A stretch of DNA of 29,069 nucleotides from Candidatus Micrarchaeota archaeon (GTDB lineage Archaea > Micrarchaeota > Micrarchaeia > Norongarragalinales > SBBD01). This document shows positions 184 through 25,927 of the stretch, in pieces. A program made the translations under genes and the position numbers. The notes under the pieces were generated by a model. That model did not search any database. It was given only the letters and a program-made list of their open reading frames with translations, and was not told the DNA's origin. The stretch spans positions 1-29,069 of the forward strand of contig JBDRLB010000020.1 in assembly GCA_043813365.1 (NCBI GenBank). Reading direction: 5' to 3'. The first letter of the stretch is position 1; each line of letters starts with the position of its first letter.

Positions 184-367
184 CCTCGAATGAGGGAAAA
201 GCACTGAGCTGGCGATCATGTGATTAGCGGACTTTCCTGAACTCTTTTTCCAATTTCTGCTGCTGGAGCCATCTGAACACCCCCTTTTCCTCCAGCGGCA
301 GATCAAACTAGGCGATAACGGTTAATATTCCGGATCAGGGGTAATTTCGGGTGATTTTCTTTAAGCG

Positions 368-610
368 TTAGCCTCCAGTCGGGTCCGGCATCAGCAACAG
401 CGTGTCATTCTCCTTTATCCCTACTTCCTGCAAGGTGGAATCCGGATTAAGTATTTTATTATCCTGCGTTGCAAGCACAAACCGGTCCTTCAGCTGCAGG
501 GATTCGGTAAGCACTTCCAGCACGGATGAAACCGTGAATTCCGGCTCAACCGCAAGCACGGTCTCCTTTCCGCTTGTTGTATGCGAAACTGTTATGTTGA
601 ATTCTGCCAT
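368..610 (-). CDS. Ubiquitin-like protein (80 aa, beta-grasp, C-terminal GG)
   Basis: MAEFNITVSHTTSGKETVLAVEPEFTV...NKILNPDSTLQEVGIKENDTLLLMPDPTGG aligns by eye with ubiquitin ([41 protein letters not shown]). GGTGG SD-like motif precedes ATG 610. Confidence 0.85.
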   Translation of the reverse strand: MAEFNITVSHTTSGKETVLAVEPEFTVSSVLEVLTESLQLKDRFVLATQDNKILNPDSTLQEVGIKENDTLLLMPDPTGG

Positions 611-671
611 AAGTACCACCTTGAGCTAATAAGCAGCCAACAATATTAATGCCTTTCGCCATAATATCTTC

Positions 672-974
672 ATGGCCGAAAAGAGGAAGCCAAGGGTTGT
701 ATCCGTGAAGAGGAAGCCGCGAGTGGTTGATGAGACGGATTATTCCCTTTTGCTGGAGAACAAGGAGCCGGACAACCTTATTCTTGGAAAGCGGGCCGAA
801 AGGAGGGAAATTCACGATTCCGCCCGTGACAAGCTAAGGGAAGACATGCTTGCAGACATCACCCCGGTGAAGCCGCCGCTCGAGCATCTGGAATTAGAAA
901 GGGAAATCGACGAGGATAGGAAGAAAAGGCATTCCATAGGAAGGAAAATCCGGAAGGTTGTGGGGCTGGAATAG
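672..974 (+). CDS. Hypothetical highly charged protein (100 aa), first gene of the JAB/RING operon
   Basis: ATG start, divergent from Ubl. Lys/Arg/Glu-rich with a duplicated KRKPRVV motif; no family recognised. Confidence 0.65.
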   Translation: MAEKRKPRVVSVKRKPRVVDETDYSLLLENKEPDNLILGKRAERREIHDSARDKLREDMLADITPVKPPLEHLELEREIDEDRKKRHSIGRKIRKVVGLE

Positions 975-1006
975 GCATCGCGTGAAGCAGGTTAAAGTCG
1001 GTAATT

Positions 1007-1552
1007 ATGGCAAGATTCAACGCTTACAGGCCCGAGCGAGAAACCTATCGCCACCTTAAAAAATTAAGTGAGAGAAATCCTGTAGATATAGACGGCATAT
1101 CGAGTTACGATCCGGAAAGGTATGCTCGAATGGCATCCGAAGATCCGGTAAGGACAAATGTTGCACAGCATAAAGTTCTGCTCCGCAAGGTTGTAGGTCG
1201 CGCCAGCGGGACTATAACTGCAACAGCCGCAGAAAAGAAAGCATTATCCGAATTTATCATAAGGGCACACGGGAATCCGCCGCTTTTTAATGTTTTTATG
1301 CCGATGACAGAAAAATATTCCGTTCCCTCCTCAGAACTGGAAAAATTCATTTCCAAGGTTGGAGGAAAGGAAAGGGCTTATCATCTACTAAGGCAATTTT
1401 CAGATAGCATAGCGATGATCGGCCTTCCACTTTCTAACAGAAATAGGATGGAGTCGCCAAACAAGCAGGCATTGCATTTGATGGATCATGCCATGGCAAA
1501 TATTTTATCAATCGCCGTAAAGGCGTGGCAACAAATTAAAGGCAAGGTGTGA
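1007..1552 (+). CDS. Hypothetical protein (181 aa)
   Basis: Long ORF ending 3 nt before the JAB start. Contains no Cys; no family recognised. Confidence 0.7.
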   Translation: MARFNAYRPERETYRHLKKLSERNPVDIDGISSYDPERYARMASEDPVRTNVAQHKVLLRKVVGRASGTITATAAEKKALSEFIIRAHGNPPLFNVFMPMTEKYSVPSSELEKFISKVGGKERAYHLLRQFSDSIAMIGLPLSNRNRMESPNKQALHLMDHAMANILSIAVKAWQQIKGKV

Positions 1553-1555
1553 CGG

Positions 1556-2038
1556 ATGCACGAACCCTATGATGCATACATTTCGGAAACAGCTCTTTCG
1601 AAGGCGGAGAAGCTGTTCGAGCATGCTGCAGCGCAAGGGCTGGAGGCGCTGGGGCTTCTGGTGGGGAATGTTTTCGTCCATAATGGGAAGCAGTATGTGG
1701 TGGTGGAGAATTTCATAACCGCTAAAAACCTTCCAACTGCAGTCAGCGTGAAATTCACAAAAGAAGCATTTACGGAGCTCTCAAAAGCATACAGTTCCCA
1801 TTTCAAGGAGCGCAAGCTCATTGTGGGCTGGATACACTCGCACCCTTCCTATGGCTGCTTCCTTTCACAGACGGACATCAACACCCAAAAACGGTTCTTT
1901 TCCTCCCCGTTCAACATCGCGATGGTTGTGGACCCTTTGCGCTGGAAGGGCGGAAGGATGGAAGAGAGGGTTTTTAGGGTTAGGGGTAATGATTTTTACG
2001 AAATAAGCTTCGCAATAATTCAAAAGAAAAGTGGTTGA
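1556..2038 (+). CDS. JAB/MPN+ (JAMM) metallo-isopeptidase, Rpn11/CSN5-like
   Basis: EALGLLVG ... IVGWIHSHPSYGCFLSQTDINTQ ... AMVVDP gives a full E-x(n)-HxH-x7-S-x2-D JAMM motif. Confidence 0.93.
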   Translation: MHEPYDAYISETALSKAEKLFEHAAAQGLEALGLLVGNVFVHNGKQYVVVENFITAKNLPTAVSVKFTKEAFTELSKAYSSHFKERKLIVGWIHSHPSYGCFLSQTDINTQKRFFSSPFNIAMVVDPLRWKGGRMEERVFRVRGNDFYEISFAIIQKKSG

Positions 2039-3107
2039 GTTGGACGAGATCCAGCAGAAAATTGATGTGGAAATGGAAGTACCCGCCGCAGAGCCGGCAC
2101 CAGCAAAAAAAATCAGGAAGAGGAGGATTTCCGTCCCGAAAGGCGAGGGCAGGCTTAAGCTAACGAAGTTCGATTTCATCCTTTTGCAGCTCATAAAGGA
2201 GGGGAAGAATAATTCCGATGAGCTGAGGGCAATTTTCAATTTGGAAAAGGCGGAATTCGACCGGAGAGTTGCGCAATTGAGGGAAGGGGGGTTTATCAAC
2301 GCCAATCCCGATTCCTCTTCAGTTTTCCTTTCCATGAGGGGGATAAACGATTATTCCATCAAATGGAAAAGCGCTGCGGATGACTGGCTGGGAAGGAAGG
2401 AGAGAAAACCAAGGGTAAGCAAGGAGGCAAAAACGGCCCAAAATGCCTCTGAAACCACAACCACTAATTCCGAACCCCTGCTTGATCTCGAGCATACGAT
2501 CCAATCCAAACTGCCGATTGAGATTTTGTGGAAGGAGCTCTCGCCGATGCATGAGAAAATTCTGGAGCTTCCAGAGGAGAAAAGGGCGCAGGAAACAATT
2601 GACATCATGGACCTGATAAGGAAATACGGCCCGACTGATAAACAAAAGGACCTCCTGAACAAAACTTCCCCATTCGTTGAGAGGCACATGAAGAACGGGG
2701 CTGCAAAGAAAAAAACAGAAGTGAAAAAAACACCTGAAACTCCCAACAGCAAAGGTTTGCCGGCAATTGTCCAACCCCCATCAACCTCCGAAGCGAATAT
2801 TCCCGCCCCTGCTGAAAAGCCTTTTTACAACCGGGCGATTTCAGAACTCTCAAAGCAGGCTGCCGAAATAGAGGAGAAGGGCGAGAAATGCGAGCTCTGC
2901 AAAACCGGCTTCCTTATTTCCGTGAAGCAGGAGGAGCATAACCCCAAGTACGGCCATTGCTTCTGCGGCGCCCCCTACCACAAGGATTGCTATGGGGGAA
3001 TAGTGAACGGCGATAGCAAATGCATCCGCTGCGGCCGCAAGCTCGGAAGCGGAGCTGATTTCAAGGTGGAGGATGCGTTCAAGCAGATACGGGACATATC
3101 ATTCTAG
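2031..3107 (+). CDS. N-terminal winged-helix plus C-terminal RING-variant (C4HC3) zinc-finger protein, putative E3 ligase
   Basis: wHTH-like LTKFDFILLQLIKEG..SDELRAIFNL..FDRRVAQLREGGFI, then a low-complexity linker, then C-x2-C-x19-C-x-C-x4-H-x2-C-x10-C-x2-C at 2889-3032. The GTG start overlaps the JAB stop by 8 nt. Confidence 0.75.
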   Translation: MVELDEIQQKIDVEMEVPAAEPAPAKKIRKRRISVPKGEGRLKLTKFDFILLQLIKEGKNNSDELRAIFNLEKAEFDRRVAQLREGGFINANPDSSSVFLSMRGINDYSIKWKSAADDWLGRKERKPRVSKEAKTAQNASETTTTNSEPLLDLEHTIQSKLPIEILWKELSPMHEKILELPEEKRAQETIDIMDLIRKYGPTDKQKDLLNKTSPFVERHMKNGAAKKKTEVKKTPETPNSKGLPAIVQPPSTSEANIPAPAEKPFYNRAISELSKQAAEIEEKGEKCELCKTGFLISVKQEEHNPKYGHCFCGAPYHKDCYGGIVNGDSKCIRCGRKLGSGADFKVEDAFKQIRDISF

Positions 3108-3138
3108 GCGGGAATCGGGGGCACGGATTCGGAACATA

Positions 3139-3912
3139 TCATCCTGGATGCACTGGGCAGTCCTTCCTTTTCTCAACCGTAAATGCGCGAAAACTATTTT
3201 TCCTTCCGTCATGCATCAGGATTTTGCCCGATAAATTCGGCTCGTTTTTCAGGCTCTCCATCCTCAATTTCAAGAATTCGTTCACCTGCATTGACGCAAC
3301 AATCGAATTAGTGGTGCTGATTGCCGGCATTTTAGGATCAATGAAATCGAGCACCTCCCCAACGCAGGAATAGCGCTGCCAGAGCAATTTGTAATCCGAT
3401 TTGCTCATCCCGCACTCGATGCAGCTTCCGGGCGCATTAACAACCTGCACCTTCCCCAAAAAGCCGGTTGTCCCTCCGTCAATCAGGGGTGCCTTCCCGT
3501 AAATATGCGCATTCAGGTGCAGCCTCGCGTTCAGGTTGTCGAGGCAGGAAAACGCGACATCGAAATTGCCAAAGAATGTTTCCTCCATCTCCTCGATTTT
3601 TTTTATTACCGGGGTGATTTCCGCATTTGGAAATAAGGTTTTGGTTTTTTCCATTATCACTGCCGTCTTCAGCCTCTTATTCTCCGCATCATCCGGCGAG
3701 AAGAAAACGCAGCGGTTCAAATTCGCCTTCACGATGACATCGAAGTCAACAAGCGTGATTTTCTCCACTCCCAGCTGCAATAGTGATTTCACAACCTCGT
3801 TCCCCAATGCGCCCGCACCAACAACAAGTACCCGGGATTCCGTTACGGGCTGCTGCTCCCAATTGCCGATCCTCTTCTGCCTGTCCAGGGGATCCTCGTC
3901 CACATCTGCCAT
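3139..3912 (-). CDS. E1-like ubiquitin-activating enzyme (ThiF/MoeB/E1 superfamily)
   Basis: VLVVGAGALG, VDFD..ANLNR, CLDNLNAR, PLIDGGT, CIEC, putative catalytic Cys in QRYSC (3364-3366), PAISTTNSIVA, terminal CPVH. Confidence 0.92.
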   Translation of the reverse strand: MADVDEDPLDRQKRIGNWEQQPVTESRVLVVGAGALGNEVVKSLLQLGVEKITLVDFDVIVKANLNRCVFFSPDDAENKRLKTAVIMEKTKTLFPNAEITPVIKKIEEMEETFFGNFDVAFSCLDNLNARLHLNAHIYGKAPLIDGGTTGFLGKVQVVNAPGSCIECGMSKSDYKLLWQRYSCVGEVLDFIDPKMPAISTTNSIVASMQVNEFLKLRMESLKNEPNLSGKILMHDGRKNSFRAFTVEKRKDCPVHPG

Positions 3913-3961
3913 GAATAACTATTGGCGCCATTTTTTTAATATCCTTGCTATTACCTTCCTC

Positions 3962-4807
3962 ATGCCAACGATCATGTTCAGCAAAGGCAACCTCGCAGGC
4001 GAAACCATTGCGAAAAAGCTAATCGCAAACCACGGTTTCAATGAGAGGGAGCCATTCAAAACAGCAGATGGGAAATTCGAATGGAAAACGTGGTCGGATG
4101 GCAAATTGAAAATGTATGAGCTCACAACAATGCATATTTTTTCCGACGAGCTCTCGAAATACCCTCTTTTCAACGAAACCGATCTGATAGTGATGCTCTC
4201 CACCCACAAAAGTGAGAGCAACACCGCATCCGTAAGCGTGCATTCGTGCGGCAATTTCGGCAATTCCAGCAAATTAGGGGGCAACCCCTTGGAGTTGGGG
4301 CATTCATCAGGCGCGGCTATAAAAATAGGTTACAATTTCCTTCTTGGCAATCCTCTTCCCTCTTTCGCAATTGCTATGGAAGCAACCCACCACGGCCCCA
4401 CCACCTGGAAACCCCCGATTGTCTGGGTGGAAATAGGGAGTGGGGAGAAGGAATGGACAAATGGGGAAGCAGGGGCGCTTATGGCAAAATGCGCCCTTGA
4501 GATCTGCGGCAAATGGAAAAAAGGGGAAAAAGCGCAGCCGGAAGATAAAGTGGCAATTGGTTTCGGCGGCACGCATTACTGCCCCAAATTCTCCAAATTG
4601 ATGATGGAAAACGGATACGAGTTCCCCTACATCTGCTCGAAGCACAATCTGGAGGATGTAAATGCGGAAATCATCAAGGAGGCGCTGGAAAAAAGTTCGG
4701 AAAAAATTGAAGTTGCGCTGATAGAGAAAAAGAGCATGAATGCGGCTTTGAGGGAAAAGGCAATCGCCACGCTAAAGGAAATCGGTTTGCCCTACGAATT
4801 GGTTTAG
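3962..4807 (+). CDS. dtdA: Archaeal-type D-aminoacyl-tRNA deacylase
   Basis: STHKSE, SVHSCGNF, MEATHHGPT, VEIGSGEKEW, AIGFGGTHYCPKF motifs. True start taken as ATG 3962 (MPTIMFSKGNLAG). Confidence 0.9.
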   Translation: MPTIMFSKGNLAGETIAKKLIANHGFNEREPFKTADGKFEWKTWSDGKLKMYELTTMHIFSDELSKYPLFNETDLIVMLSTHKSESNTASVSVHSCGNFGNSSKLGGNPLELGHSSGAAIKIGYNFLLGNPLPSFAIAMEATHHGPTTWKPPIVWVEIGSGEKEWTNGEAGALMAKCALEICGKWKKGEKAQPEDKVAIGFGGTHYCPKFSKLMMENGYEFPYICSKHNLEDVNAEIIKEALEKSSEKIEVALIEKKSMNAALREKAIATLKEIGLPYELV

Positions 4808-6215: not shown

Positions 6216-6416
6216 TTTGGTGGAATAAGGTTTGGGAAAAACAATTAATAAAACGATTTGCAGAATGCCCAAAAGATTATTCCAGTTAAACCTTGATTTT
6301 TATTCCCTTATACAGCAGGTATTCCGGCATAATAAAAACCACTACACCGTCATAACGTTTTTAAACATTCGATTTGTAAGGTTTGACATATAGGTTATAC
6401 TTCACAGGTGGTAAAA

Positions 6417-6740
6417 ATGGCAGTCAAGCTCTCGCAGCTGATAGGAATGGACATCTACACGGATACCGCGGTTTTCGTGGGAAAGGTTTACGATGTGATA
6501 CTTGATTTGCAGAAAGGCGAAGTTGTGAGGCTCACCCTCGAACCAATAAAGGTTGCAAGCAAGGAGGAGGCGAAGCGCGTATTCCGCGAAAAAACCATCC
6601 TTTACCGCTCAGTGAAGGCCGTCGAGAAGATCATCATCGTCTCCTCAACGGGCAGCGTAGGCGCGGACCTTATTGAAGAGGATGAGAAGCCAGCCACACC
6701 GGAAAAGCCGATGCCCTATTCCTACAGGTACAGGAAATAA
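6417..6740 (+). CDS. PRC-barrel domain protein
   Basis: KLSQLIGMDIYTDTAVFVGKVYDVILDLQKGEV..ILYRSVKAVEKIIIV pattern; AGGTG SD-like motif before ATG 6417. Confidence 0.85.
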   Translation: MAVKLSQLIGMDIYTDTAVFVGKVYDVILDLQKGEVVRLTLEPIKVASKEEAKRVFREKTILYRSVKAVEKIIIVSSTGSVGADLIEEDEKPATPEKPMPYSYRYRK

Positions 6741-7187
6741 ATGGCCGCACCCACCTACCAAAACGGCTCCGAAGAAACCCCATTGGGAGCAACGCAGCAA
6801 AGGATGCGGAAGCAGATATTTGACGAAGCCGAAAAGCACGGCATCAAACCCCTGATAGCAGAGAAAATTACCTACCTCCTTACCCATACGGAGGTTGTGC
6901 CCACCCGATTTTCCATCGGGAAGATAATGGACAAAATCAAAAGCCAAATTGCCGCCGGCAACATTGTCGATGATAAGAAACTCATGAACGTCGCAGGCTT
7001 CTACCTTACCTACGAGCATATCGATAACGGACGGGTCATCCAGGAAAATAAATTCTCCCGTCCAAGGGCTTTCCCTGATTCGAAACTGATCTTATCGGGA
7101 AGGAAACTCAAATTGGAGATTCCCATCAGGAATAGGGAGTATATTCTAGAACAGCTTGCGAGAATAAATACGGTCAGACAACCCTGA
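6741..7187 (+). CDS. Hypothetical protein (148 aa)
   Basis: Starts immediately after the PRC-barrel stop (TAA ATG); no family recognised. Confidence 0.65.
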   Translation: MAAPTYQNGSEETPLGATQQRMRKQIFDEAEKHGIKPLIAEKITYLLTHTEVVPTRFSIGKIMDKIKSQIAAGNIVDDKKLMNVAGFYLTYEHIDNGRVIQENKFSRPRAFPDSKLILSGRKLKLEIPIRNREYILEQLARINTVRQP

Positions 7188-7575
7188 GCTCGATCTTCTT
7201 CCTTATCTCATTCAGGATGTAGCTGTAATCCCTGTAATGCGAAATCGCATAAATCAGGACCGGATACGACCCTTTCGGGACCCTCTGGCCGGAAAACACC
7301 TGCAGCTTCACGTCCTTGAGTTCCCTTGGCGCCAACGTCCCCAGCCTGATTTCCCTTTGCTGCATGAACGCTGATTTGTCCAGGCCGAGCGGCTTCGGGA
7401 CCTGCACAACAATAGAAGTGAGCATCTCCCTTTCCGCAACATTGGTTATTTTGATCTCCAAATCAATGGAATCCGCGCGGTGCGCATTCAGCTTGAACGG
7501 GTGGAACTCTGCCGTGAGCTCATAAATCGTGCCGTGGGAGATGTCTTTTTTTCCAAATAAGTCGAAAATCCCCAT
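7174..7575 (-). CDS. Hypothetical Ig-like beta-sandwich protein (133 aa)
   Basis: Alternating beta pattern IDLEIKITN..LGTLAPRELKDVKLQV..GSYPVLIYA, typical of single Ig-fold archaeal proteins. Confidence 0.65.
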   Translation of the reverse strand: MGIFDLFGKKDISHGTIYELTAEFHPFKLNAHRADSIDLEIKITNVAEREMLTSIVVQVPKPLGLDKSAFMQQREIRLGTLAPRELKDVKLQVFSGQRVPKGSYPVLIYAISHYRDYSYILNEIRKKIELRVV

Positions 7576-10957: not shown

Positions 10958-12007
10958 GTGCAATATAAGATTGGCGTGGTCGAAAAGGAAAAGTTATTGA
11001 GGGCTTTGGGATATTTTGGCAATATTTATTCAGGTAGCATAGGTTTAGGAGTTATCTATCTGATACTTTTATTTATCATACAATTCCTACCCGCGTACAA
11101 TAGTGTTTTTATCTACAATGTAATCAGCACCATCAACAAAGCCCTATTGCTACTGATTTTCCTCATCTCAATTTATTTACCAATAAAGATACTCAAAGAT
11201 GAGAAGGATAGATTTGTAACCTATGCGACTATCTTCATCTACACTTTTTGCTCAATGCTTATATCCTTCTTACTCTACTATTTGTCATTGATCGATTCAA
11301 GGAACCATCTATTGGAATGGTTAGGCTTATTTTCCCTATTCGTCTTATCTGCAAATCCCGGGGGCATGCTTTTAACGCTTAATTCGAATTTATGCACTTT
11401 TTCAATGCCCCTCCAGGGATGGGGCGTTGGGCAATGCATCGACTCTGGAATTTCTTACCCTTATGATTACCATATTATTGAATTCCTATTTGCCAATTTG
11501 ATCGCAGGAATAATGGCACTAGCCCTGCTCGTGCTGCTTATGAGATATCCTATTCTTGAAAAAATCGATGGTTTGAAGGAAATTCTGAAGCAAAACAAAA
11601 AAGGAATTGCTTTGGTAATTATATGCCTATTTCTTGTTGCCGCAATTGCATTTTACTCAAGCCTGCCTGTCCGGAATCCCAATTTAGTATTTTCCACCTC
11701 AAGATGCGTAAATTTTAATGAAGAATCCCCGACGGATTACCTGATATTGAACCAATCCAACCTCAATGTCAGCTGGAAAAACCAGACGACGTTGGTTATC
11801 GAAGGTATCATCGTAACTCATTGTGGTGGAGATAAGATAACGGGGGATTATTCTGTGGACGGCAATGAAATTACCTTGAAGAGTAAAGTTGAAATGGGTG
11901 CGATAGTTACGGGCTGCATATGCCCGCATAAGGTCACTTACGAACTCCTGAACCTAGAAAAAAAAGACTACTCCATTTCAGTTATATCCGATTTCCCCCG
12001 CAACTAG
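10958..12007 (+). CDS. Low-GC multi-pass membrane protein with C-terminal extracellular Cys-containing beta domain
   Basis: About 6 hydrophobic segments, then ..IVTHCGG..YSVDGNEITLK..GCICPHKVTYEL. GTG start uncertain. Confidence 0.7.
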   Translation: MQYKIGVVEKEKLLRALGYFGNIYSGSIGLGVIYLILLFIIQFLPAYNSVFIYNVISTINKALLLLIFLISIYLPIKILKDEKDRFVTYATIFIYTFCSMLISFLLYYLSLIDSRNHLLEWLGLFSLFVLSANPGGMLLTLNSNLCTFSMPLQGWGVGQCIDSGISYPYDYHIIEFLFANLIAGIMALALLVLLMRYPILEKIDGLKEILKQNKKGIALVIICLFLVAAIAFYSSLPVRNPNLVFSTSRCVNFNEESPTDYLILNQSNLNVSWKNQTTLVIEGIIVTHCGGDKITGDYSVDGNEITLKSKVEMGAIVTGCICPHKVTYELLNLEKKDYSISVISDFPRN

Positions 12008-14059: not shown

Positions 14060-16690
14060 TCATTTCTGTTCTTTCCCCCCCACCTTCTTTTGCAGCTCCT
14101 TGTAAAGCAGGTCCATCTCATCCGTATCCTTCTTCCCTTCCGCTCCTTCCGTTTTGGGCTTCTCAGCCTCCTTCTTCAGCTTCAATTTCGCAAGCGCCTC
14201 CTCATCGCTCTTCTCTTCCGGTATTTCTATTTCCTCCTCCTCCCCGCCGGATTTCTTCCCGTACTTCTTGTTCCATTCCCTTAAGGCAGCTTCCGTTTCC
14301 GCCCTCTTCTTGTCCAATGCTACACTCATTGCAACATAAGTCTGCTCATCCACGCTCCCCTTCATCCTCTTGTACTGCAATTGCTGCATCTCCTGCGGTA
14401 TCATCTCCAGTATCCTCCTTAACTCCTTCCCCCTCATCTTCCTCATCCGGTATTTGTTGATCACGGAGAAAAGCGAAACCAAAATCAAAACTGCAGATGC
14501 GAATGTTGCAATGAGGAAAATGTCCCTGTTCTGCTGGTCCACGACCTGAACGCGTGAAATGCTCGCCTTCGCACCCTTCGAAAGCTCAACTTTCAATGTT
14601 CCTCCTCCATGCTCCTTATTCCCAACCAGAATCAGGAAAGTGCCCAATGAGGGGGGCTCTATTTCGCACCACACCTCCGCTTTTGCAGCATCAATTGTGC
14701 ATATGCATTCCCCGCTCTGCTCCGGTCCCTTGCATTTCGCGGTTGTTATTGCCGAGGTGCTCTCAACGGAAAACAATACGGTTACTTTCTCATCGCCCCT
14801 TATTGCGCCTTCCGGCTCATATCTCACTGAAGGGAAGGTGATCTCGTTCGGCCTTTCAACTCCCGAACCAACTGTCAGCTCCCGGTCATCCACATTTTCA
14901 TCGGTTTCCTTAACCGGCTGGGCGGAAGGGGTTGAGATGAATTTCGGCACCGGCTTTACGTCTACAACCTGCTTTTTGCAGTAATCCGTGTTTTCCGTCC
15001 ATTGGAGCTTCCCGCCTATTTCAGCGCAGCAATATTCCTTTTCCCCGCAAGTAAGGATGACGTTATTTGCCTTGTTCTGCTGGTCGCATGGCGCAGGGTT
15101 GGCAAAATCGCATTTGTTCTCATCCGTGCAATACGGTGCAAGCCCCAATAACGCAGTATCAGCGATTGCGCAATTTTCAAAGCATTTCGAATGTTCCGGC
15201 GTGAGCTTGCAGCCTTCTGTTGTGCAGGTTCCTATGCCGCAGCCGGAATCCGCACATGCTTTGGGAGCTTCCGGCTCGCATCTACCATCCTTTTCATAAT
15301 AGCGCTGGAAAACATTGTCCTTGCACGTGTTCTGGCTGGCGCAGTAGGTGTAGGCATCCTTTTTGGTAGCGAATTGGTCGGGGCTGCTTCTCCTGTAATT
15401 GCCGCAAACTCCATTAGCACAGCTTAAAATAAAGAAGAAGTAAGCGGTGCCGTTCTTCAAGTCCTTCAGCTCCACTTTGTGGGATGTGGTAATTGCCCTA
15501 TCCACTGCCTGGATCACCGGATTTGATTCACCATAAAACACCGTCCCATCCGAATTCCTGTCGGTTGTCCATTCTATGGTTGCATAATTGGTAGCTGAGT
15601 TCACGGTTACGCCGGAAATTGCCGGCGCCGAGCCCGCATTTGTTCCTGCATCTGTTATCTCAATGGCAATTGTTGCAGGAGTTGCGGCTGCTGTGACGCT
15701 CGTATTTGAGTAAACAAAAAACGCAGAAATCGTATGCGTTCCAATTGAAGCACTTTCGGTGTTCCATGTGTAAGCGAATGGTTCGGATGCGCCCGGTTCA
15801 AGGTGTTTTGTTATCCTGTCAAGTTCGGATGCCCCATCCCTGAATCCGGCTTGCAAATCCTCCGGAAACGCCCCGTTGTTGCCCAGAATGGCTGAAAGCA
15901 CAATGAGTGCGCCCTTCCCAACCGTTCCCGAAGGGGTGGCACCGAAATTGCTAATGTCGACTTTATGCTGCAGCTCTGGTGAGGGGCTTATGGTCACCGG
16001 CCTTTCCAGCGTCATATTTGAACCAGTCACTTCAGAGCACCCTCCCTCATTGCAGCTTGTTATTTTGAAATAATACGTCGCATTGGCGCTAAGCTGCGAA
16101 ATTGTATGCGAATGGGAAGTTTTCAACGCCGGATCCCATGGCCCCTGCGTATACGCTCCTCCAGAGTAAAGCGGATTAGTCCCGGAATATGTCACATTTG
16201 CGTTCCCCGGAATGTCCGTCTCCCAGCTGATGGTGATGTTCGAATATGTTGCAACGGAATGCACGGAACCGGAAACGATTTTGGGGGTTGGGAGGACGTT
16301 TGCATAAGCCCAGAAGCCGACTCCAGTTGAAACACCCGAAGAATTTTTACATGTTGAAATAACGCTTCCGCTTGGGTTGCTATAATAGATTTTTGCACTT
16401 TTAATAATATACGAGCCAGGATTCGAATAAATGCACGTAGCAAAAGATGATCCACACACTAAATTGTGACTTGCAGGTGCATGGGGAGTCTCGCCATCAT
16501 AACAACTAATGCTTATACTTGAAAAAACTACTCCTTCCTCACAATCAATCTTTAAAGTAATTGGAGCAGCAACATTTTCCCCTCCAATGTAAAACGTATA
16601 TTGATTGGCTTCGTAAGTACAATTAAGTGCAAATGTCGAACTGCTTAAGATAGCAACTACGACCATACTTACTATTAGTGGAAAGCGCAT
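14060..16690 (-). CDS. Large secreted, C-terminally anchored surface protein (FN3-like x2, CARDB-like, Cys-rich region, TM, charged tail)
   Basis: Signal peptide MRFPLIVSMVVVAILSSSTFA; two ITISWETD/ATIEWTTD..SHxxxxxxL...T.Y.F.I.SC units; LEPGASEPFAYTWNT CARDB-like motif; TM IFLIATFASAVLILVSLFSVI. Confidence 0.8.
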   Translation of the reverse strand: MRFPLIVSMVVVAILSSSTFALNCTYEANQYTFYIGGENVAAPITLKIDCEEGVVFSSISISCYDGETPHAPASHNLVCGSSFATCIYSNPGSYIIKSAKIYYSNPSGSVISTCKNSSGVSTGVGFWAYANVLPTPKIVSGSVHSVATYSNITISWETDIPGNANVTYSGTNPLYSGGAYTQGPWDPALKTSHSHTISQLSANATYYFKITSCNEGGCSEVTGSNMTLERPVTISPSPELQHKVDISNFGATPSGTVGKGALIVLSAILGNNGAFPEDLQAGFRDGASELDRITKHLEPGASEPFAYTWNTESASIGTHTISAFFVYSNTSVTAAATPATIAIEITDAGTNAGSAPAISGVTVNSATNYATIEWTTDRNSDGTVFYGESNPVIQAVDRAITTSHKVELKDLKNGTAYFFFILSCANGVCGNYRRSSPDQFATKKDAYTYCASQNTCKDNVFQRYYEKDGRCEPEAPKACADSGCGIGTCTTEGCKLTPEHSKCFENCAIADTALLGLAPYCTDENKCDFANPAPCDQQNKANNVILTCGEKEYCCAEIGGKLQWTENTDYCKKQVVDVKPVPKFISTPSAQPVKETDENVDDRELTVGSGVERPNEITFPSVRYEPEGAIRGDEKVTVLFSVESTSAITTAKCKGPEQSGECICTIDAAKAEVWCEIEPPSLGTFLILVGNKEHGGGTLKVELSKGAKASISRVQVVDQQNRDIFLIATFASAVLILVSLFSVINKYRMRKMRGKELRRILEMIPQEMQQLQYKRMKGSVDEQTYVAMSVALDKKRAETEAALREWNKKYGKKSGGEEEEIEIPEEKSDEEALAKLKLKKEAEKPKTEGAEGKKDTDEMDLLYKELQKKVGGKEQK

Positions 16691-16824
16691 AACATACACT
16701 ACTTCCAAGCCCTATTTAATGATTTCAGTGCCGGTCAATTCTGCCTTTTTATATGTTTATACGACATATGCCGAAGGAAATGTTAATATAGAAAAATCAT
16801 TACAATATAACGTAGGTGAGAGGT

Positions 16825-18894
16825 ATGGAAAATAGAAGTATAACCTTACTCGCATTACTCTTTGTGCTGATTGTACCGTATGCAGCGGCTGCAGTTACAA
16901 CTAGTGTAATTTCTGTTGATGAAGGCTCCACGTTGGCGATAAAGCCGGTTTACAAACCAACAGTCTATTTGAGAGTGATTGTCGACGGAAAATTGCTTGC
17001 GACAATGTCGCCCGAACAAAACCGCTATCATACAGTTTCTGAAAACCAATTGTTAACCTTTTCCTCATCATTACAGAGTGATGACCCAGGCGATTTTTTA
17101 GAAATAATCCCTGAAACGCTACCTGAGGGTGCATCCATGCCTTACGCATCGGGATATACTTATATTTCCTCCGACTTCAGTTGGACACCAAATTATTGTC
17201 AAGGCAGATCGGCTCCTTATGAATTCGATGTTAACTTCTTAGCAAATTCATTTTTTGCTGGGATCGACACCCACTTCATCACCGTCAACAACGTCAACCG
17301 GAATCCGGTAATTACTACTTCCCTTCCAACTTACAATTACACAATTCCGGGAAACACAGTTAGCTTCAGCTTAACGGCAACCGACATTGACAAAACAGAG
17401 TGCAATGACGATTCAATAAGCATGAGCTACAATTCGATCCCTTCGGCTTCGGGTATGAGCTTCACTGACCAGGGGAACGGCAATGCTATTTACAGCTGGA
17501 CTCCCTCAGCAGGGCAATACGGCACGTATGCGGTAACATTCACCGCAACGGATTCCCATTCCGGAACGCATCAGAAAACAGTTAATATAGTTGTGCTAAA
17601 TCCGGACGGCCCCACGACATTCGCCAACATAAACGAGGGGCAATTGCTTGCTTTTGACAAGAGCACCGGCTTCATTTCCGGCTATGATCTGGAAGTAAAG
17701 GCGTTAGCTCCTTTGCCAACTGGAGCAACGTTCACAGCAACTCCAGGAAAGCAATTAAGGGGGCAGGAAGGTTCGGGAAGGTTCAGCTGGACTCCGGACT
17801 ATTGCCAGGGAAAAGTTACCGCCTATCAGGTAAAATTCCAATTCTACAACCACACCTCAATGCCCGGATTGGCATGGAGGAATGAGACGGTAAACATTAC
17901 GGTAAACAACGTCAACCGGAATCCGGTAATCACAACCAACCCCACTTCTCCGGTTTATTTGGCTGTTGGAGGCAACTACCATCAGGTTCTGGCGGCAACG
18001 GATGCGGATGTGAGCTGCGGGGATGATTCAATTGCAATGAGCTACTCCGCGAATCCGGTTACAATTTCAGCCACTTTCTTCGACCAGGGGAATGGGAATG
18101 CGGTTTTCGACTGGACTCCTTCAGTTGGGGAAGTTGGAATTCACACATTGACATTCAAGGCGCAGGATCAATACGGCGGCTACAATGAAAAGCAGGTAAT
18201 TGTTGAAGTATTCCAACCAAGAGGCACCGCAACCTACACCATTAATGAGGGGCAGTACTTCTCATTCGCAAGGAACGTGATGGGCTTCGGCGGTGAAAAC
18301 CTGAAAATAGAGCCGTTGCAATCAGCTTTACCAGCAGGTTCGGCATTCCCAATAGCAACCGGAACCACAGCACTTTCGGATGGTTTCAACTGGAGGCCGA
18401 ATTTCTGCCAGAAGAGCGATGTCCCTTACTCATTCACCGTGAAATACTGGGGAAGCGACCAGAATTACGACACCGAAACAATAAACATCAACGTGAACAA
18501 CGTTAACAGGAAGCCGGTGATGTCCGGAACGCCCTGCTACTTCAAGGCAAGGGCGGGCAGGGATACCGTTACTTTCGATTTCACAATAACGGATGTGGAC
18601 GAGCAGTGCTCTCCCTCTGAAGAGACCGCTGAAGTGCAGGTAGCTCTTGCGGGCACCTACGAGAGGCCCGGCAAGGTAACGAAGAACACTGAAACCAACG
18701 TGTACACCTACCAATGGAAGCCGGACAAGATCAACAGGGGGATGTATTCGTTCACGATAACCGCAACTGATTCGCACGGCGGTGCTTCCATAAAACCTTT
18801 TCAGGTGTATGTGCTGCCCTACAGCTCCACACTGCTCTCCACGGACATGGTGTTCTGGTGCAGGTCGGCTGACGAGGGCCTCGGGGATCGATAG
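16825..18894 (+). CDS. Secreted protein with three tandem paired putative-Ig/cadherin-like repeats
   Basis: Signal peptide followed by three units: I.EG..L/F.F..LP.G..F.W.P.Y/FCQ..I.VNNVNR.PV and A/IT.D.D..C..Y/F.W.P..Y/H.TF/IT.ATD. Confidence 0.82.
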   Translation: MENRSITLLALLFVLIVPYAAAAVTTSVISVDEGSTLAIKPVYKPTVYLRVIVDGKLLATMSPEQNRYHTVSENQLLTFSSSLQSDDPGDFLEIIPETLPEGASMPYASGYTYISSDFSWTPNYCQGRSAPYEFDVNFLANSFFAGIDTHFITVNNVNRNPVITTSLPTYNYTIPGNTVSFSLTATDIDKTECNDDSISMSYNSIPSASGMSFTDQGNGNAIYSWTPSAGQYGTYAVTFTATDSHSGTHQKTVNIVVLNPDGPTTFANINEGQLLAFDKSTGFISGYDLEVKALAPLPTGATFTATPGKQLRGQEGSGRFSWTPDYCQGKVTAYQVKFQFYNHTSMPGLAWRNETVNITVNNVNRNPVITTNPTSPVYLAVGGNYHQVLAATDADVSCGDDSIAMSYSANPVTISATFFDQGNGNAVFDWTPSVGEVGIHTLTFKAQDQYGGYNEKQVIVEVFQPRGTATYTINEGQYFSFARNVMGFGGENLKIEPLQSALPAGSAFPIATGTTALSDGFNWRPNFCQKSDVPYSFTVKYWGSDQNYDTETININVNNVNRKPVMSGTPCYFKARAGRDTVTFDFTITDVDEQCSPSEETAEVQVALAGTYERPGKVTKNTETNVYTYQWKPDKINRGMYSFTITATDSHGGASIKPFQVYVLPYSSTLLSTDMVFWCRSADEGLGDR
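17287..17930 (+). repeat. 26-bp exact intragenic direct repeat
   Basis: AACAACGTCAACCGGAATCCGGTAAT at 17287-17312 and 17905-17930; a diverged third copy lies near 18496. Confidence 0.8.
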
Positions 18895-19048: not shown

Positions 19049-19696
19049 ATGAAAATACCACTGGAAAAGCGGCTCCGGAAGCAGTCCCATAGGGATTTGG
19101 GCTATTTGCAGGACGAGGCATTGGAAATATTATATTCCATTTCGCCGGATTTCATACTGCATGGCGGCACCGCGATTTGGAGGTGCTTTGGAGGAGGGCG
19201 TTTCTCGGAGGACATAGACCTGTACGCGCCTAAACTGCCGGTTGATTTTGGGGAAAAATTCAAGGGAATGCTTGTTTCAAGGGGCTTGCAAATGCAAAAA
19301 TTCAAAACAACTGAGAATACTGTTTTCTGCAAAATCAAGGGAAACGGGGAGGAGATGCGCATCGAGATCAATATTTCAAAAAAACCGCCGGAATATTCCC
19401 CGATACCTTACGGGAAAATGGACGGCTCTTCGATGATAGCCATCTGCCTCACTGCCGATTCGCTGATCGTTGAGAAGGCATCCGCCTACATTTCGAGGAA
19501 GCTCATACGGGATGTTTACGACGTTTATTTCCTCTCAAACATTGTGGAAAAACCGGAAACAGGAAAGGAGCTGGCAGCACTCCTGCGGAAGTTTCCCGAA
19601 CCGCTTGATGAAAGCACATTGAAAACGCTCATATATTCCGGCACTGTCCCTTCCTTTCCCCAAATGATGGAAATTCTGAGGAGGAAATTCCCATGA
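19049..19696 (+). CDS. AbiEii/AbiGii-family nucleotidyltransferase (type IV TA toxin)
   Basis: ILHGGTAI..GGRFSEDID motif, EKASA..RKLIRDVYDVYFL. Confidence 0.88.
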   Translation: MKIPLEKRLRKQSHRDLGYLQDEALEILYSISPDFILHGGTAIWRCFGGGRFSEDIDLYAPKLPVDFGEKFKGMLVSRGLQMQKFKTTENTVFCKIKGNGEEMRIEINISKKPPEYSPIPYGKMDGSSMIAICLTADSLIVEKASAYISRKLIRDVYDVYFLSNIVEKPETGKELAALLRKFPEPLDESTLKTLIYSGTVPSFPQMMEILRRKFP

Positions 19697-20265
19697 AATA
19701 TATATCGATAATCAGGGAAAGGCTTCGGAAGGAACCTGCATTCACCCGGGGGGACATGAAGCGGCTATTCCCCAAAATATCTTCCAATTACCTAAACCTG
19801 CTCATACACACCCTCCTGAAAAAGAAGGAAATTTTCCGGATTTCCAGGGGAATTTACACCTTCCATGACGATGCGCAGGTTGTGGGGTTCGGCTTCAGGC
19901 CTTTTTACTACGGCTGCCAGGAGGCGCTTTCAATCAGGGGAATCTGGGAGCAGGAAACCAACCCGGTGATCGTGACTCCCCGGAAGGTGCGGGCGGGCAT
20001 GCGGCACTTCGAGGGGGGGAATTACCTTGTGAAACGGATAAGCCGGAGCATGTTTTTCGGCTTTGATTTGGTGAGAATCGGCAATTACTGGGTTTCCGCA
20101 TCGGATTTGGAGAAGACCCTAATTGACATGGTATATTTCAGGCAGCATATCCCCCGGGAAGTCCTGATGGAAATGCGAGGCAAGCTGAGCGTGGGGAAAA
20201 TGGATTCTTATCTGCAAAGGTGCCCCGCACGGGTGGCATCCAAAGTCAGGAGGATGCTTGAGTAA
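19693..20265 (+). CDS. AbiEi-family antitoxin/transcriptional regulator
   Basis: N-terminal wHTH (LLKKKEIFRISRGIY), FYYG.QEALSIRG, VSASDLEKTLIDMVY; ATGA overlap with the toxin stop. Confidence 0.82.
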   Translation: MKYISIIRERLRKEPAFTRGDMKRLFPKISSNYLNLLIHTLLKKKEIFRISRGIYTFHDDAQVVGFGFRPFYYGCQEALSIRGIWEQETNPVIVTPRKVRAGMRHFEGGNYLVKRISRSMFFGFDLVRIGNYWVSASDLEKTLIDMVYFRQHIPREVLMEMRGKLSVGKMDSYLQRCPARVASKVRRMLE

Positions 20266-23744: not shown

Positions 23745-23836
23745 TGCCGCCGGGTTCGAAACAACCTTAATAAATCCGCATTCCCAAATTAAATCCGCTA
23801 ATGTTTGTTTTCTACGGGGGTGTACCGGGAGGGAAT

Positions 23837-25927
23837 ATGGGAAAGGAAATTCGCGACAAGTGCGGCGTGCTCGCGATATATTCAGAGAAGGGCGATTCGG
23901 CTGAAGTGCCCTATGACATATACAACGGCCTGATCGCACTCCAGCACCGGGGCCAGGAGTCGGGCGGTATTTCCGTAATTTCTGAAGGGAAAATCGCAAC
24001 CAAGAAGGGCATGGGGCTTGTGACGGACATTTTCACTACTGAGGACATCGAAAAGCTTACCGGAAGGGCGGGCATAGGGCATGTGCGCTATTCCACAACC
24101 GGAAGCTCCACCATCGAGAATGCACAGCCCTTGCTTTACAGGGACAAGGAGCTCGAGATTGCGATTTCGTTCAACGGCAACATCGTGAATTACGAGGAGC
24201 TCAAGCAGCATTTCGAGAATTTGCACCAGATGCCCTTCTCCTGCTCTGCGGATACCGAGCTGATTTTGAAGATGTTCGCAGCGGAATTAAGGAAGGAAAT
24301 GAAGGACGGCAAGGAAAAGCCGCACAACGTTTCCGAATTGCTCCTGCAGAACGAGAAGCCGGAATTCAAGCCGTACTTCAAGGCGATGTATTCCATAATG
24401 AAGCAGCTGGAGGGCGCATATTCGCTCGCGCTGCTTCTCAATGATGGCACCCTAATTGCGGCAAGGGACCCGAAGGGGTTCAAGCCTTTCTCCATAGGCA
24501 GGAAGAAAACGCTTTTAAGCGACACAATTTTCATCGCAAGCGAAACAGCCGGGCTTGATGCACTTGATGCCCAATTCGACAGGGACATACGGCCCGGCGA
24601 AATTGTCGTGATAAGGAACAACGAGGTGCGCACGCAAGTTCTTTTCCACGAGAGGCATTCGCACTGCATGTTCGAATGGGTGTACTTCTCCCGAACGGAT
24701 TCCATAATTGAGGACCGCCCTGTTTACGATGTGCGCGTAAGGTTGGGAGAAGAGTTGGCGAAGGCGTTCAAGCATGAGATTGATGTTGTTATTCCCATCC
24801 CGGATTCCGGCCGCTCGGCTGCAAGGGGGTTTGCCCGCATGGCTGCAGTGCCGATGGAGGAGGGGCTCATAAAGAACCGTTACATACACCGCACATTCAT
24901 AATGCCCGCTAATGACAGGCGCAAAGCGCTTCTCAAGCTGAAGCTGAACCCCGTCAGGAGCGTAATAGAGGGGAAGAGGATTGCGGTTGTTGATGACAGC
25001 ATAATACGCGGGAACACGATGAAGCGGCTCGTGAAGATGCTCCGCGACAACGGTGCGAAAGAGGTGCACCTTCTCGTAAGCTGCCCGCCTGTGATTTCGC
25101 CGTGCTACATGGGAATCGATTTCCCAACCTACAAGGAATTGATCGCCTCCAGCAGGACAATAACGCAAATAGCTGAAGATCTCGGAGCGGATTCGGTCAC
25201 ATACAATGATGTTGATGCGCTTGCACGCGCTCTTGCGCTTTCAGACGGGGACAGCTGCATGGCGTGCCTTACTGGGGTTTACCCGACCCCAAAAATCCAC
25301 GATTATGCGCAGCAGATGAAAAACCGCGGGGAAAGAAAGCCTTACACAATTGCGGTCCTTGCATCGGGAAGGGGCACCAATCTCCAGAGCGTCATTGATA
25401 ATGTTGAGAACAAGAAGCTTGATGCCCGCGTTGCGCTTGTGGTTTCCGACAAGCAGGGTGCGCAGGCGCTTAAAAGAGCGGAAAAGCACGGAATCGAATC
25501 CCTCCATATCGACCCGAAGAAATTCCCTTCAAAGGAGGAGTATGAAAAGGAAATGCTGAAGCACCTGAAGGAAAAGCAGGTTGATTTGATTGTTCTCGCA
25601 GGGTACACGCGCATTGTCGGGAAAACCCTTCTGGACAGATACCGCGACCGCATCATCAACATCCATCCCACATTGCTCCCGAAATTCAAGGGATGCATGG
25701 GGCTCGAATGCCATAAGAAAGTGATCGAGGCGGGAGAGCTTGAAACCGGCTGCACCGTTCACCTTGTAACGGAGCAGGTTGACGGCGGCCCCATAATCGG
25801 GCAGAGGAAAGTGCCTGTTATGAAGGGCGATACTCCTGAAATGCTTTCCGAACGCATCCTGCAGGAAGAGCACATATTGCTGCCTGAAGTGATAGGGATG
25901 TTTGTGAGGGGAAAGCACGGCTGCTGA
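23837..25927 (+). CDS. purF: Bifunctional amidophosphoribosyltransferase / phosphoribosylglycinamide formyltransferase (PurF-PurN fusion)
   Basis: PurF part: DK|CG, LQHRGQE, GHVRYST, CMFEWVYF, VVDDSIIRGNT, PCYMGID, CMAC. In-frame PurN part from about 25343: IAVLASGRGTNLQ, LAGY, NIHPTLLP, TGCTVH, VDGGPII. Confidence 0.93.
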   Translation: MGKEIRDKCGVLAIYSEKGDSAEVPYDIYNGLIALQHRGQESGGISVISEGKIATKKGMGLVTDIFTTEDIEKLTGRAGIGHVRYSTTGSSTIENAQPLLYRDKELEIAISFNGNIVNYEELKQHFENLHQMPFSCSADTELILKMFAAELRKEMKDGKEKPHNVSELLLQNEKPEFKPYFKAMYSIMKQLEGAYSLALLLNDGTLIAARDPKGFKPFSIGRKKTLLSDTIFIASETAGLDALDAQFDRDIRPGEIVVIRNNEVRTQVLFHERHSHCMFEWVYFSRTDSIIEDRPVYDVRVRLGEELAKAFKHEIDVVIPIPDSGRSAARGFARMAAVPMEEGLIKNRYIHRTFIMPANDRRKALLKLKLNPVRSVIEGKRIAVVDDSIIRGNTMKRLVKMLRDNGAKEVHLLVSCPPVISPCYMGIDFPTYKELIASSRTITQIAEDLGADSVTYNDVDALARALALSDGDSCMACLTGVYPTPKIHDYAQQMKNRGERKPYTIAVLASGRGTNLQSVIDNVENKKLDARVALVVSDKQGAQALKRAEKHGIESLHIDPKKFPSKEEYEKEMLKHLKEKQVDLIVLAGYTRIVGKTLLDRYRDRIINIHPTLLPKFKGCMGLECHKKVIEAGELETGCTVHLVTEQVDGGPIIGQRKVPVMKGDTPEMLSERILQEEHILLPEVIGMFVRGKHGC

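Follow-up and report, generated by a model that had tools for sequence, protein, structure and literature searches.

Eukaryote-like ubiquitylation in archaea has been discussed for Aigarchaeota, Asgard archaea, and a few Crenarchaeota and Euryarchaeota (PMC4327156, PMC5654768, PMC4594999), and the 2015 survey of archaeal ubiquitin toolkits covers, in its available portions, Crenarchaeota, Euryarchaeota, and Aigarchaeota only (PMC4327156). In Candidatus Caldiarchaeum subterraneum (Aigarchaeota), an operon encodes ubiquitin, a ubiquitin-conjugating enzyme (E2), a ubiquitin-activating enzyme (E1), and the small stand-alone RING protein srfp, and the gene for an Rpn11-like JAMM protease is adjacent (PMC5654768, PMC6043591). 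Asgard systems are described, in the excerpts available, as clustered sets of eukaryote-like E1, E2, RING, and ubiquitin genes. Here we describe a stretch of 29,069 nucleotides (hereafter, the window), which is contig C20 (JBDRLB010000020.1, positions 1 to 29,069) of the genome assembly GCA_043813365.1 from a Candidatus Micrarchaeota archaeon. One end of the window carries a compact cluster of ubiquitin-type genes. Judged from the sequence, the cluster, together with an E2 gene on another contig, probably forms a full ubiquitin-type conjugation system, present in one copy and of the Caldiarchaeum/Asgard kind, in Micrarchaeota, a DPANN lineage. A search of the literature on Micrarchaeota or DPANN and ubiquitin, judged from titles and abstract openings, returned no report of such a system. 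The word "ubiquitin" is absent from the main text, as available, of both papers on Norongarragalinales (PMC12892359, PMC8561730), whose supplementary gene tables could list such genes. As far as searched, the system is apparently unpublished in DPANN.

The host genome is 1.34 Mb in 78 contigs, with a completeness of 88.6% and a contamination estimate of 3%. An earlier reading of the window from the letters and open reading frames (ORFs) alone (the sequence-only reading) had taken the host for a probable DPANN archaeon, and the named homologues agree. Those of E1 and of the zinc-finger protein described below are all from Micrarchaeota, some of them labelled Candidatus Norongarragalinales, the closest relatives bearing a name. 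The same reading had listed a ubiquitin-like modifier (Ubl), a JAMM protease, a C4HC3 zinc-finger protein, an E1, and two ORFs without a family. All of them were recovered in place by the ORF listing and the Pfam and NCBIfam scans. The features of the cluster are as follows.

368..610, minus strand: Ubl modifier, 80 amino acids from the ATG at 610; the frame is open to a GTG at 619
611..671: divergent intergenic region, 61 nucleotides separating the Ubl gene from orfA, rich in A/T near 642-650
672..974, plus strand: orfA, 100 amino acids, highly charged, probably disordered
1007..1552, plus strand: orfB, a 181-amino-acid orphan between orfA and the protease gene
1556..2038, plus strand: Rpn11-like JAMM/MPN+ metalloprotease (JAB), 160 amino acids (PF01398, E = 8e-13)
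2031..3107, plus strand: putative ubiquitin ligase (E3), 358 amino acids, with an N-terminal winged helix, a linker, and a C-terminal C4HC3 finger
2883..3038, plus strand: C4HC3 RING-like zinc finger, with the ligands C287, C290, C310, C312, H317, C320, C331, and C334
3139..3912, minus strand: minimal E1, 257 amino acids, with a single ThiF adenylation domain (E = 2e-46)

In the gene list of the sequence-only reading the layout seemed to be devoid of E2. This did not hold. A search of the host genome with the Pfam family UQ_con found one E2 gene, at 218-700 of contig C11, near the contig start. It scores 68.1 bits against a cut-off of 27 (E = 5e-19) and possesses the HPN motif and the catalytic Cys. 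All 19 aligned sequences keep the HPN motif, Cys95, Trp102, and PNxxxPLN unchanged. Its neighbours in the Protein Data Bank (PDB) are UBE2C and other eukaryotic E2s (2e-12). The loop-4 residues P69 and Y70 are invariant across the aligned E2 sequences, and thus the Pro-Tyr pair of the Caldiarchaeum E2 is kept; there the pair is necessary for E3 action, according to the available part of the report (PMC5654768). The E2 gene lies directly downstream of the Ubl gene on the same strand in 18 of 19 loci from related genomes (3/3 from close relatives and 15/16 from the order). The 16 order loci were taken around the E2 genes of other genomes and represent ten families. Ubl and E2 adjoin in relatives, and the Ubl gene of the window points to where contig C20 begins. 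The most economical reading, drawn from synteny only, is that contigs C11 and C20 abut and that the E2-less look is an assembly break. A word-index search with the E2 returned 19 close Micrarchaeota relatives. NCBI automatic annotation names some of the relatives' proteins [quoted passage not shown].

The Ubl terminates with LMPDPTGG immediately before the stop codon, and would thus be made in the mature form. It passes the Pfam cut-off for Rad60-SLD (24.5 against 23.8 bits, E = 2.3e-5) and matches the Pfam ubiquitin family (E = 2.1e-4), and its best PDB matches are ubiquitin variants (E = 1.6e-6). In the Pfam scan, neither ThiS nor MoaD matched the Ubl at E ≤ 0.1, and PF02597 (ThiS/MoaD) had no match at E ≤ 1 in the whole host genome, which is 88.6% complete. 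The question of whether the Ubl groups with MoaD, ThiS, or SAMP, raised by the sequence-only reading, is thus answered in favour of the ubiquitin-type families. The ORF listing puts the gene at 368-619; the GG end noticed in that reading is there, and the alignment of relatives and the DNA make the ATG at 610 the more likely start.

The Ubl sequences are 45-83% identical across the order, and the PDPTGG tail and K18 are present in 19/19 sequences. The protein ends exactly at GG in 14 of 18 relatives, in contrast to the pro-ubiquitin of Caldiarchaeum, which, in the available description, needs a cut by Rpn11. In the other four relatives (loci L018, L019, L021, and L023) the protein continues past GG: GGFYS, GGNFSNIARE, GGKR, and one long tail. 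These extensions are 2 to 9 residues in three relatives and longer in the fourth, and trimming would be needed there. The long tail, in L021, could alternatively be a frameshift or read-through. The tryptic remnant of the Ubl on a modified lysine would be 14 residues (ENDTLLLMPDPTGG), not diglycine.

The E1 consists of one adenylation domain without a separate catalytic-cysteine domain or a rhodanese domain. A conserved cysteine, Cys183, is located in a short crossover loop, whereas the Caldiarchaeum E1 is described in the available part of a 2024 review as carrying a separate Cys domain of 60 residues. A zinc site is composed of C164/C167 and C252/H255. GxGxxG, NLNRC, CLDN, CxxC, C183, and the C..H pair are invariant in 16/16 sequences. 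The protein is below every NCBIfam equivalog cut-off: 94.5 against 275.25 bits for ThiF, 83.6 against 376.55 for MoeB, and 77.1 against 450 for UbaA (NF047750). In the PDB, residues 16-169 match eukaryotic Uba1, Uba6, NAE, and SAE2 at 2.8e-23 to 1e-17, and MoeB and ThiF match over the full length at 1e-15.

A profile made from 11 Micrarchaeota E1s and run against 1.84 billion representatives matched 358 proteins at E ≤ 1e-30. ThiF is the domain found on the best 40 of these 358 matches, and none of the 40 has a rhodanese domain. A tree of the 11 Micrarchaeota E1s and 149 of the best 150 matches (one of 145 amino acids was dropped) was built with FastTree (LG+gamma, 256 columns, midpoint-rooted). 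The Micrarchaeota clade is sister to a group of six representatives with a support of 0.853. One cluster in this sister group contains four proteins named Ca. Caldarchaeum sp. and one from a Nitrososphaerota archaeon, and another carries the name Thermoproteota archaeon. The sequence-only reading had left open a grouping of this E1 with UbaA or MoeB; the equivalog scores and the tree place it beside the Caldarchaeum and Thermoproteota E1s instead.

With a profile of the sister-group E1s, 80 metagenome loci were picked. E1, Ubl, E2, and JAB occur together in 26 of the 80, colinear and on one strand wherever the layout was read. Since the sister-type E1 loci carry these four genes, the whole gene set, not E1 alone, appears to be kin to the Caldiarchaeum-type operon. 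An E1 of the Micrarchaeota type (at least 315 bits) is present in 20 of the 80 loci, and a finger gene lies alongside in all 20. Two other kinds of E1-like protein were seen in the search. P0093 (538 amino acids), among the 40 closest representatives, is a natural fusion of E1 (ThiF) and JAB. P0066/P0225 (396 amino acids) and P0071/P0234 are related proteins with an unassigned C-terminal extension of ~130 amino acids; an Altiarchaeales genome, from a further DPANN lineage, encodes such proteins, as do Bathyarchaeota.

The JAB protein has a complete metal-site motif, E...HSHPx7SQTD, and the Glu and the HxHPxYGCxLSxxD pattern are invariant in 18/18 sequences. Its PDB matches are Rpn11 (8.7e-15), CSN5 (1.1e-12), the Caldiarchaeum Rpn11-like protein 6fjv (4.9e-12), and AMSH (1e-5). 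None of the 41 PDB matches at E ≤ 0.01 is named as an archaeal JAMM1-type chain, and the score against the desampylase equivalog (NF041370) is 20.6 bits, with a cut-off of 130. It is predicted from these matches that JAB removes the Ubl from targets and, in the lineages with a tailed Ubl, processes the precursor. A second JAMM protein, of the Prok-JAB type, is encoded at 4939-5208 of contig C77 (128-amino-acid frame). It is present though the search for a modifier of the ThiS/MoaD type gave no match in this genome.

The 358-amino-acid protein combines a winged helix, at about residues 40-110, with a finger of the pattern C-x2-C-x19-C-x-C-x4-H-x2-C-x10-C-x2-C. The N-terminal winged-helix match of the window protein itself is weak, and the family profile of the winged helix matches Lrp/AsnC domains in the PDB (E = 0.002). 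All 27 sequences aligned share F47, D48, G58, R79, and L83 as well as the eight ligands for zinc, and the linker between the two domains is variable and of low complexity, with a conserved DLxxLxxKYGP. Across 33 sequences the eight ligands are unchanged but for one Cys-to-His replacement. His309 is not a ligand, being Tyr in several sequences. There are 39 homologues, of which 11 are named, all as Micrarchaeota or Norongarragalinales; among the named homologues, the winged-helix and finger architecture is found in Micrarchaeota only. The corresponding Caldiarchaeum protein differs in size and in finger type, since srfp is RING-H2 (C3H2C3) in the available part of the report (PMC5654768), whereas the protein of the window has a C4HC3 finger and carries a winged helix and a long linker.

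Several observations link the finger to RING domains. Leu289, between the first two cysteines, is conserved, as is an aromatic residue that follows the sixth ligand. By analogy, these two positions may correspond to I30 and W58 of the Caldiarchaeum RING, which are needed for E3 action according to the available part of the report (PMC5654768). The finger profile aligns with a 77-amino-acid ORF just upstream of a sister-type E1 with an hhalign probability of 93% (E = 3.3e-7, 46 columns). This ORF and a second like it pass the cut-off of the Pfam family Prok-RING_1 (PF14446; 32.6 against 29.1 bits). The finger of the window is thus homologous to the small fingers of sister-type operons. Below the Pfam threshold, Prok-RING_1 matches 21 of the 27 sequences of the family at E ≤ 1, the best of them at E = 0.025, and zf-RING_2 matches 14 of the 27. 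In a search of the PDB with Foldseek, the top rows for the first AlphaFold2 (AF2) model of the finger were RING domains, at E = 0.08-0.5.

A predicted complex of the E2, the finger, and two zinc ions scored 0.52 (runs of 0.52, 0.49, and 0.54), and the best of three controls scored 0.00. At least 97% of contacts are common to the runs, and the predicted local distance difference test score (pLDDT) of the partner is at least 76. Of 157 solved complexes, 116 attained the mark, as did 2 of 215 mismatches. Only 18 of the 157 attained it with a score no higher than 0.60, and both of the mismatches that passed were in this range. As E2-RING complexes have already been solved, the pass may reflect likeness alone, and the support from the complex is weak. 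Taken with the profile alignments, the finger appears to be RING-like and homologous to the Prok-RING_1 family, without being a member that passes the cut-off. The evidence leans toward a RING but is not conclusive. For the RING-variant E3 named in the sequence-only reading, the C4HC3 finger is invariant and is related to a Prok-RING_1 ORF, whereas the Pfam cut-offs are missed and the support from fold comparison is weak.

Neither orfA nor orfB has a family in Pfam, NCBIfam, PADLOC, or PHROGs. The orfA protein has conserved motifs, KPRVV (twice), DYSLL, and RDKLREDxLxDITP, and a basic C-terminus. With tblastn it was found in 3/3 close relatives and in 4/16 order loci. An ORF matching the orfA profile is located at the same place upstream of JAB in loci L013, L025, L019, L024, and L012, with E values of 2.5e-9 to 0.018 that come from a tiny search space. 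The ORFs are 145-440 amino acids long in these five loci, and 95-440 over the further families of the order in which the ORF lies at this place. By sequence and position, orfA appears to be a conserved sixth member of the cluster. As for orfB, tblastn gave no match in the rest of the genome or in 106 loci, window copies aside. A search of Atlas gave no usable match by features, and the matches by structure were at TM ≤ 0.41. In relatives, orfA directly adjoins JAB or another insert is found there, and the same-genus relative has other DNA at this place. orfB thus seems to be specific to the host genome and outside the conserved kit.

The order in relatives is the same as here once the E2 is placed next to the Ubl. 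E2 follows Ubl on one strand; orfA, JAB, and the winged-helix/RING-like gene run on the opposite strand; and E1 is again on the strand of Ubl. These are three divergent units, whereas the Caldiarchaeum genes form one operon. The divergent arrangement of Ubl against orfA-JAB is kept in relatives, and the intergenic region at 611-671 is presumed, from its sequence, to be a shared promoter region. The sequencing runs listed as containing positions 300-4000 of the window are five DNA runs, with no RNA run among them. All five genes (E2, Ubl, JAB, finger protein, and E1) are together in the three close-relative loci and in 12 of the 16 order loci, more than chance would give, and so the synteny suggested as a check by the sequence-only reading is present across the order. 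In the four exceptions (G126, G018, G371, and G233), E1 is elsewhere in each genome. Identities to the close relatives are 90-94% for Ubl, 66-71% for E2, 65-77% for JAB, 68-76% for E1, and 52-57% for the finger protein; the Ubl is far better conserved than its enzymes.

The spacer between Ubl and E2 and that between orfA and JAB look like insertion spots for lineage-specific genes. In locus L022 (8487-9543) of the same-genus genome G132, the Ubl and E2 genes are separated by ~1 kb, and this insert includes a 148-amino-acid ORF without a counterpart in the host genome.

In a 401-genome sample of the phylum, E2 was found in the host and in 47 of the 49 other genomes of families f1-f10. The two genomes without a match are only 76-78% complete. 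The f1-f10 genomes among those listed are marked as the same genus, family, or order as the host. No E2 was found in the 351 sampled genomes from the remaining families of the phylum, the listed ones of which are marked "same class" as the host. The system is lacking in the remaining Micrarchaeota of the sample, and the sister group of its E1 holds E1s of Caldarchaeum and Thermoproteota, which suggests a single gain by the ancestor of the order. Such a gain would fit the view that horizontal transfer shaped Norongarragalinales (PMC12892359), a paper in which, as available, ubiquitin is not mentioned. The genomes of the order are 0.7-1.6 Mb, and the system is present as one copy per genome.

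A second copy of part of the cluster is located on contig C57 of the host assembly (locus L003, 1-2718). It includes the C-terminus of a second finger protein, E1, and dtdA in the same order, at ~65% identity, with an additional ORF between the finger and E1 genes. Contig C57 most likely stems from a related organism or strain and was binned into the host genome.

The five functions of the Caldiarchaeum operon are thus all represented. The additional, conserved, and disordered orfA and the DPANN host set the present system apart from that operon. Compared by description, Asgard systems are often beside genes of the endosomal sorting machinery ESCRT and have expanded families, whereas here each component is single and Snf7 was not found in the host genome (88.6% complete). 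The SAMP/UbaA/HvJAMM1 system of Haloferax and other archaea shares with the window an E1 of MoeB size with a crossover-loop Cys, a GG-ended beta-grasp modifier, and a JAMM protease. It differs in that the Ubl of the window is not of the ThiS/MoaD type, in that E1 and JAB are far below the UbaA and desampylase cut-offs, and in that the set here also includes an E2 and a RING-like protein, both co-conserved. To our knowledge, sampylation uses no E2 or RING-like protein. The features distinguishing the present system are the winged-helix and C4HC3 ligase, the disordered orfA, the 257-amino-acid E1, and the divergent gene order. The proposal of a protein-conjugation system with a distinct architecture, made in the sequence-only reading, is supported by the components, the E1 tree, and the co-conservation.

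All of the chemistry set out below is inferred from these components, and so are the ligase function of the finger, the targets, and a possible link to the 20S proteasome. The 80-amino-acid Ubl would be produced with its GG end already free. The E1, minimal and of MoeB size, with a dimer-type adenylation domain, would adenylate the Ubl and load it as a thioester on Cys183, from where it would move on to Cys95 in the UBC-fold E2. Through its C4HC3 finger, the 358-amino-acid protein would bind the E2~Ubl in a RING manner, and the winged-helix domain and the linker motif may choose the target or the place of action. The Rpn11-like JAMM protease is predicted to take the tag off. The 20S proteasome alpha and beta genes are encoded in the host genome and a link to the proteasome is possible; a link to ESCRT is not indicated.

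Some results weigh against a complete system of this kind. The start of contig C20 has no sequence overlap with any contig end, and when the Ubl-E2 gap of the same-genus relative L022 was compared with the host genome by blastn and tblastx, only the genes matched. Over the full length of the E1, the ThiF and MoeB profiles of NCBIfam outscore Ube1. The E1 has no ubiquitin-fold domain (UFD) or other recognisable E2-docking domain for the hand-over to E2. The finger reaches no Pfam RING cut-off, scoring 11.6 bits against Prok-RING_1 (E = 0.28, cut-off 29.1). The AF2 models of the finger from 18 and 33 sequences have pLDDT values of 57.3 and 58.4, too low for a firm fold call. Foldseek gave no match for the finger model at E ≤ 0.001. 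When 48,161 chains were compared with the model by VIA-align, all matches were at Z ≤ 4.2 and were a mixture of GATA, LIM, ribosomal, C1, and RING fingers. An extra sulfur-carrier role of the E1 is also possible, as it is the sole E1-like enzyme found in the host genome (the copy on C57 being ascribed to another strain) and the genome encodes one PP-loop ATPase.

It is improbable that the Ubl and E1 are mainly a sulfur carrier and its activator, as Urm1, SAMP2, and UbaA are, serving the thiolation of transfer RNA (tRNA) or the synthesis of cofactors, with tagging secondary or absent. The MoeB size and single domain of the E1, its full-length alignment with MoeB and ThiF, and its status as the only enzyme of the type are what such a role would lead one to expect, as are the lack of a ThiS/MoaD protein found as a substitute in the 88.6% complete genome and the PP-loop ATPase (ATP_bind_3, 358-amino-acid frame). 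However, the Ubl matches ubiquitin-type families rather than ThiS, a search for MoaE did not find it, rhodanese domains are lacking on this E1 and its 40 nearest representatives, and the E1 groups with Caldarchaeum-type E1s. The E2 with its intact HPN motif and Cys, the RING-like protein, and the Rpn11-like deubiquitylating protease are also co-conserved across the order, and a sulfur carrier has no use for them. An antiviral defence module that tags viral proteins, like the bacterial Bil (ISG15-like) system or Cap2/Cap3 of the cyclic-oligonucleotide-based antiphage signalling system (CBASS), is very unlikely. Bil operons encode a Ubl, an E2, a JAB, and an E1 and so resemble the present set, and the sister-type archaeal loci share their colinear four-gene layout. 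The E1 partly matches the PADLOC models of Cap2 E1-E2 (57 bits, E = 3.7e-16), and an AbiE toxin-antitoxin pair is 15 kb off. The match is confined to the Rossmann part, however; the E2 and Ubl match no model in PADLOC-DB, whose 2023 version may lack newer Bil models, and JAB scores 27.4 bits. The genes here are separate, without an E1-E2 fusion, and are accompanied by a RING-like E3. Unlike patchy and mobile defence islands, the system is near-universal in one order, at a stable housekeeping site and in one copy per genome, and the extreme conservation of the Ubl argues against an arms race. The defence reading was rejected on the PADLOC results and the order-wide distribution.

A different alternative concerns the finger protein only. 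It could be a zinc-finger/winged-helix transcription regulator of the operon rather than an E3, the system then consisting of E1 and E2 only. Its N-terminal domain resembles the Lrp/AsnC, Lrs14, and Sta1 regulators, and the missed RING cut-offs and the weak fold evidence are in line with this. We regard this as quite unlikely, given the conservation of the eight ligands, of the hydrophobic residue between C1 and C2, and of the aromatic residue after C6, and given the homology of the finger to small Prok-RING_1 fingers encoded beside sister-type E1, E2, and JAB genes. The predicted E2-finger complex also points, weakly, to an E3, and the equivalent small RING protein of Caldiarchaeum acts as an E3 in the available part of the report (PMC5654768). 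A complete conjugation system with the finger protein as its ligase remains the preferred reading. A more specific version of it is a pathway of one E1, one E2, and one E3, in which the winged helix would bring the ligase to DNA or to a DNA-bound partner and orfA would be a dedicated adaptor or substrate. This version is speculative and unlikely. If true, it would mean chromosome-directed ubiquitylation in a prokaryote, kept as a core function across an entire order of DPANN archaea that have small genomes and may be free-living.

The presence of a full kit, near-universal in one order of Micrarchaeota, would widen the "dispersed archaeal eukaryome" to DPANN. The system is stripped down to a mature Ubl, a single E2, a single E3, and a 257-amino-acid E1 that has neither a UFD nor a Cys domain, and so offers an attractive minimal model of the chemistry and evolution of E1-E2-RING pathways. 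The fusion of winged helix and RING-like finger and the conserved disordered partner provide a concrete hypothesis on target choice.

The surroundings of the cluster are housekeeping genes, not a defence island. The sequence-only reading had noticed dtdA, rpoL, and rpoK there, and the Pfam and NCBIfam scans recovered the same setting. The other features of the window are as follows.

about 3970-4807: dtdA, neighbour of the cluster
further neighbours of the cluster: the GTP cyclohydrolase II gene, rpoL, rpoK, tRNA-Gly, and the PRC-barrel gene
6408-6740, plus strand: PRC-barrel protein
7174-7575, minus strand: ORF of 133 amino acids, no assigned family
farther along the window: purQ, purL, a purF-purN fusion, nadC, and an AbiE pair
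19049-20265, plus strand: gene for an AbiEii-like nucleotidyltransferase toxin, then gene for an AbiEi-like antitoxin
23801-25927, plus strand: 708-amino-acid ORF with glutamine amidotransferase, phosphoribosyltransferase (PurF-like), and formyl transferase (PurN-like) domains

The PRC-barrel protein is 62-89% identical in relatives. Several families of the order have its gene and the 133-amino-acid ORF near the cluster, in some cases at the end with the E2, which suggests a wider conserved neighbourhood. The 708-amino-acid ORF adjoins purQ and purL and appears to be a PurF-PurN fusion. Two stretches are low in G+C, 10958-12007 (0.39) and 16001-17000 (0.42), compared with about 0.50 elsewhere. 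The former spans a 349-amino-acid ORF without a Pfam family and may be foreign DNA. AbiE pairs are usually antitoxin-first, and the toxin-first order at 19049-20265 is the reverse.

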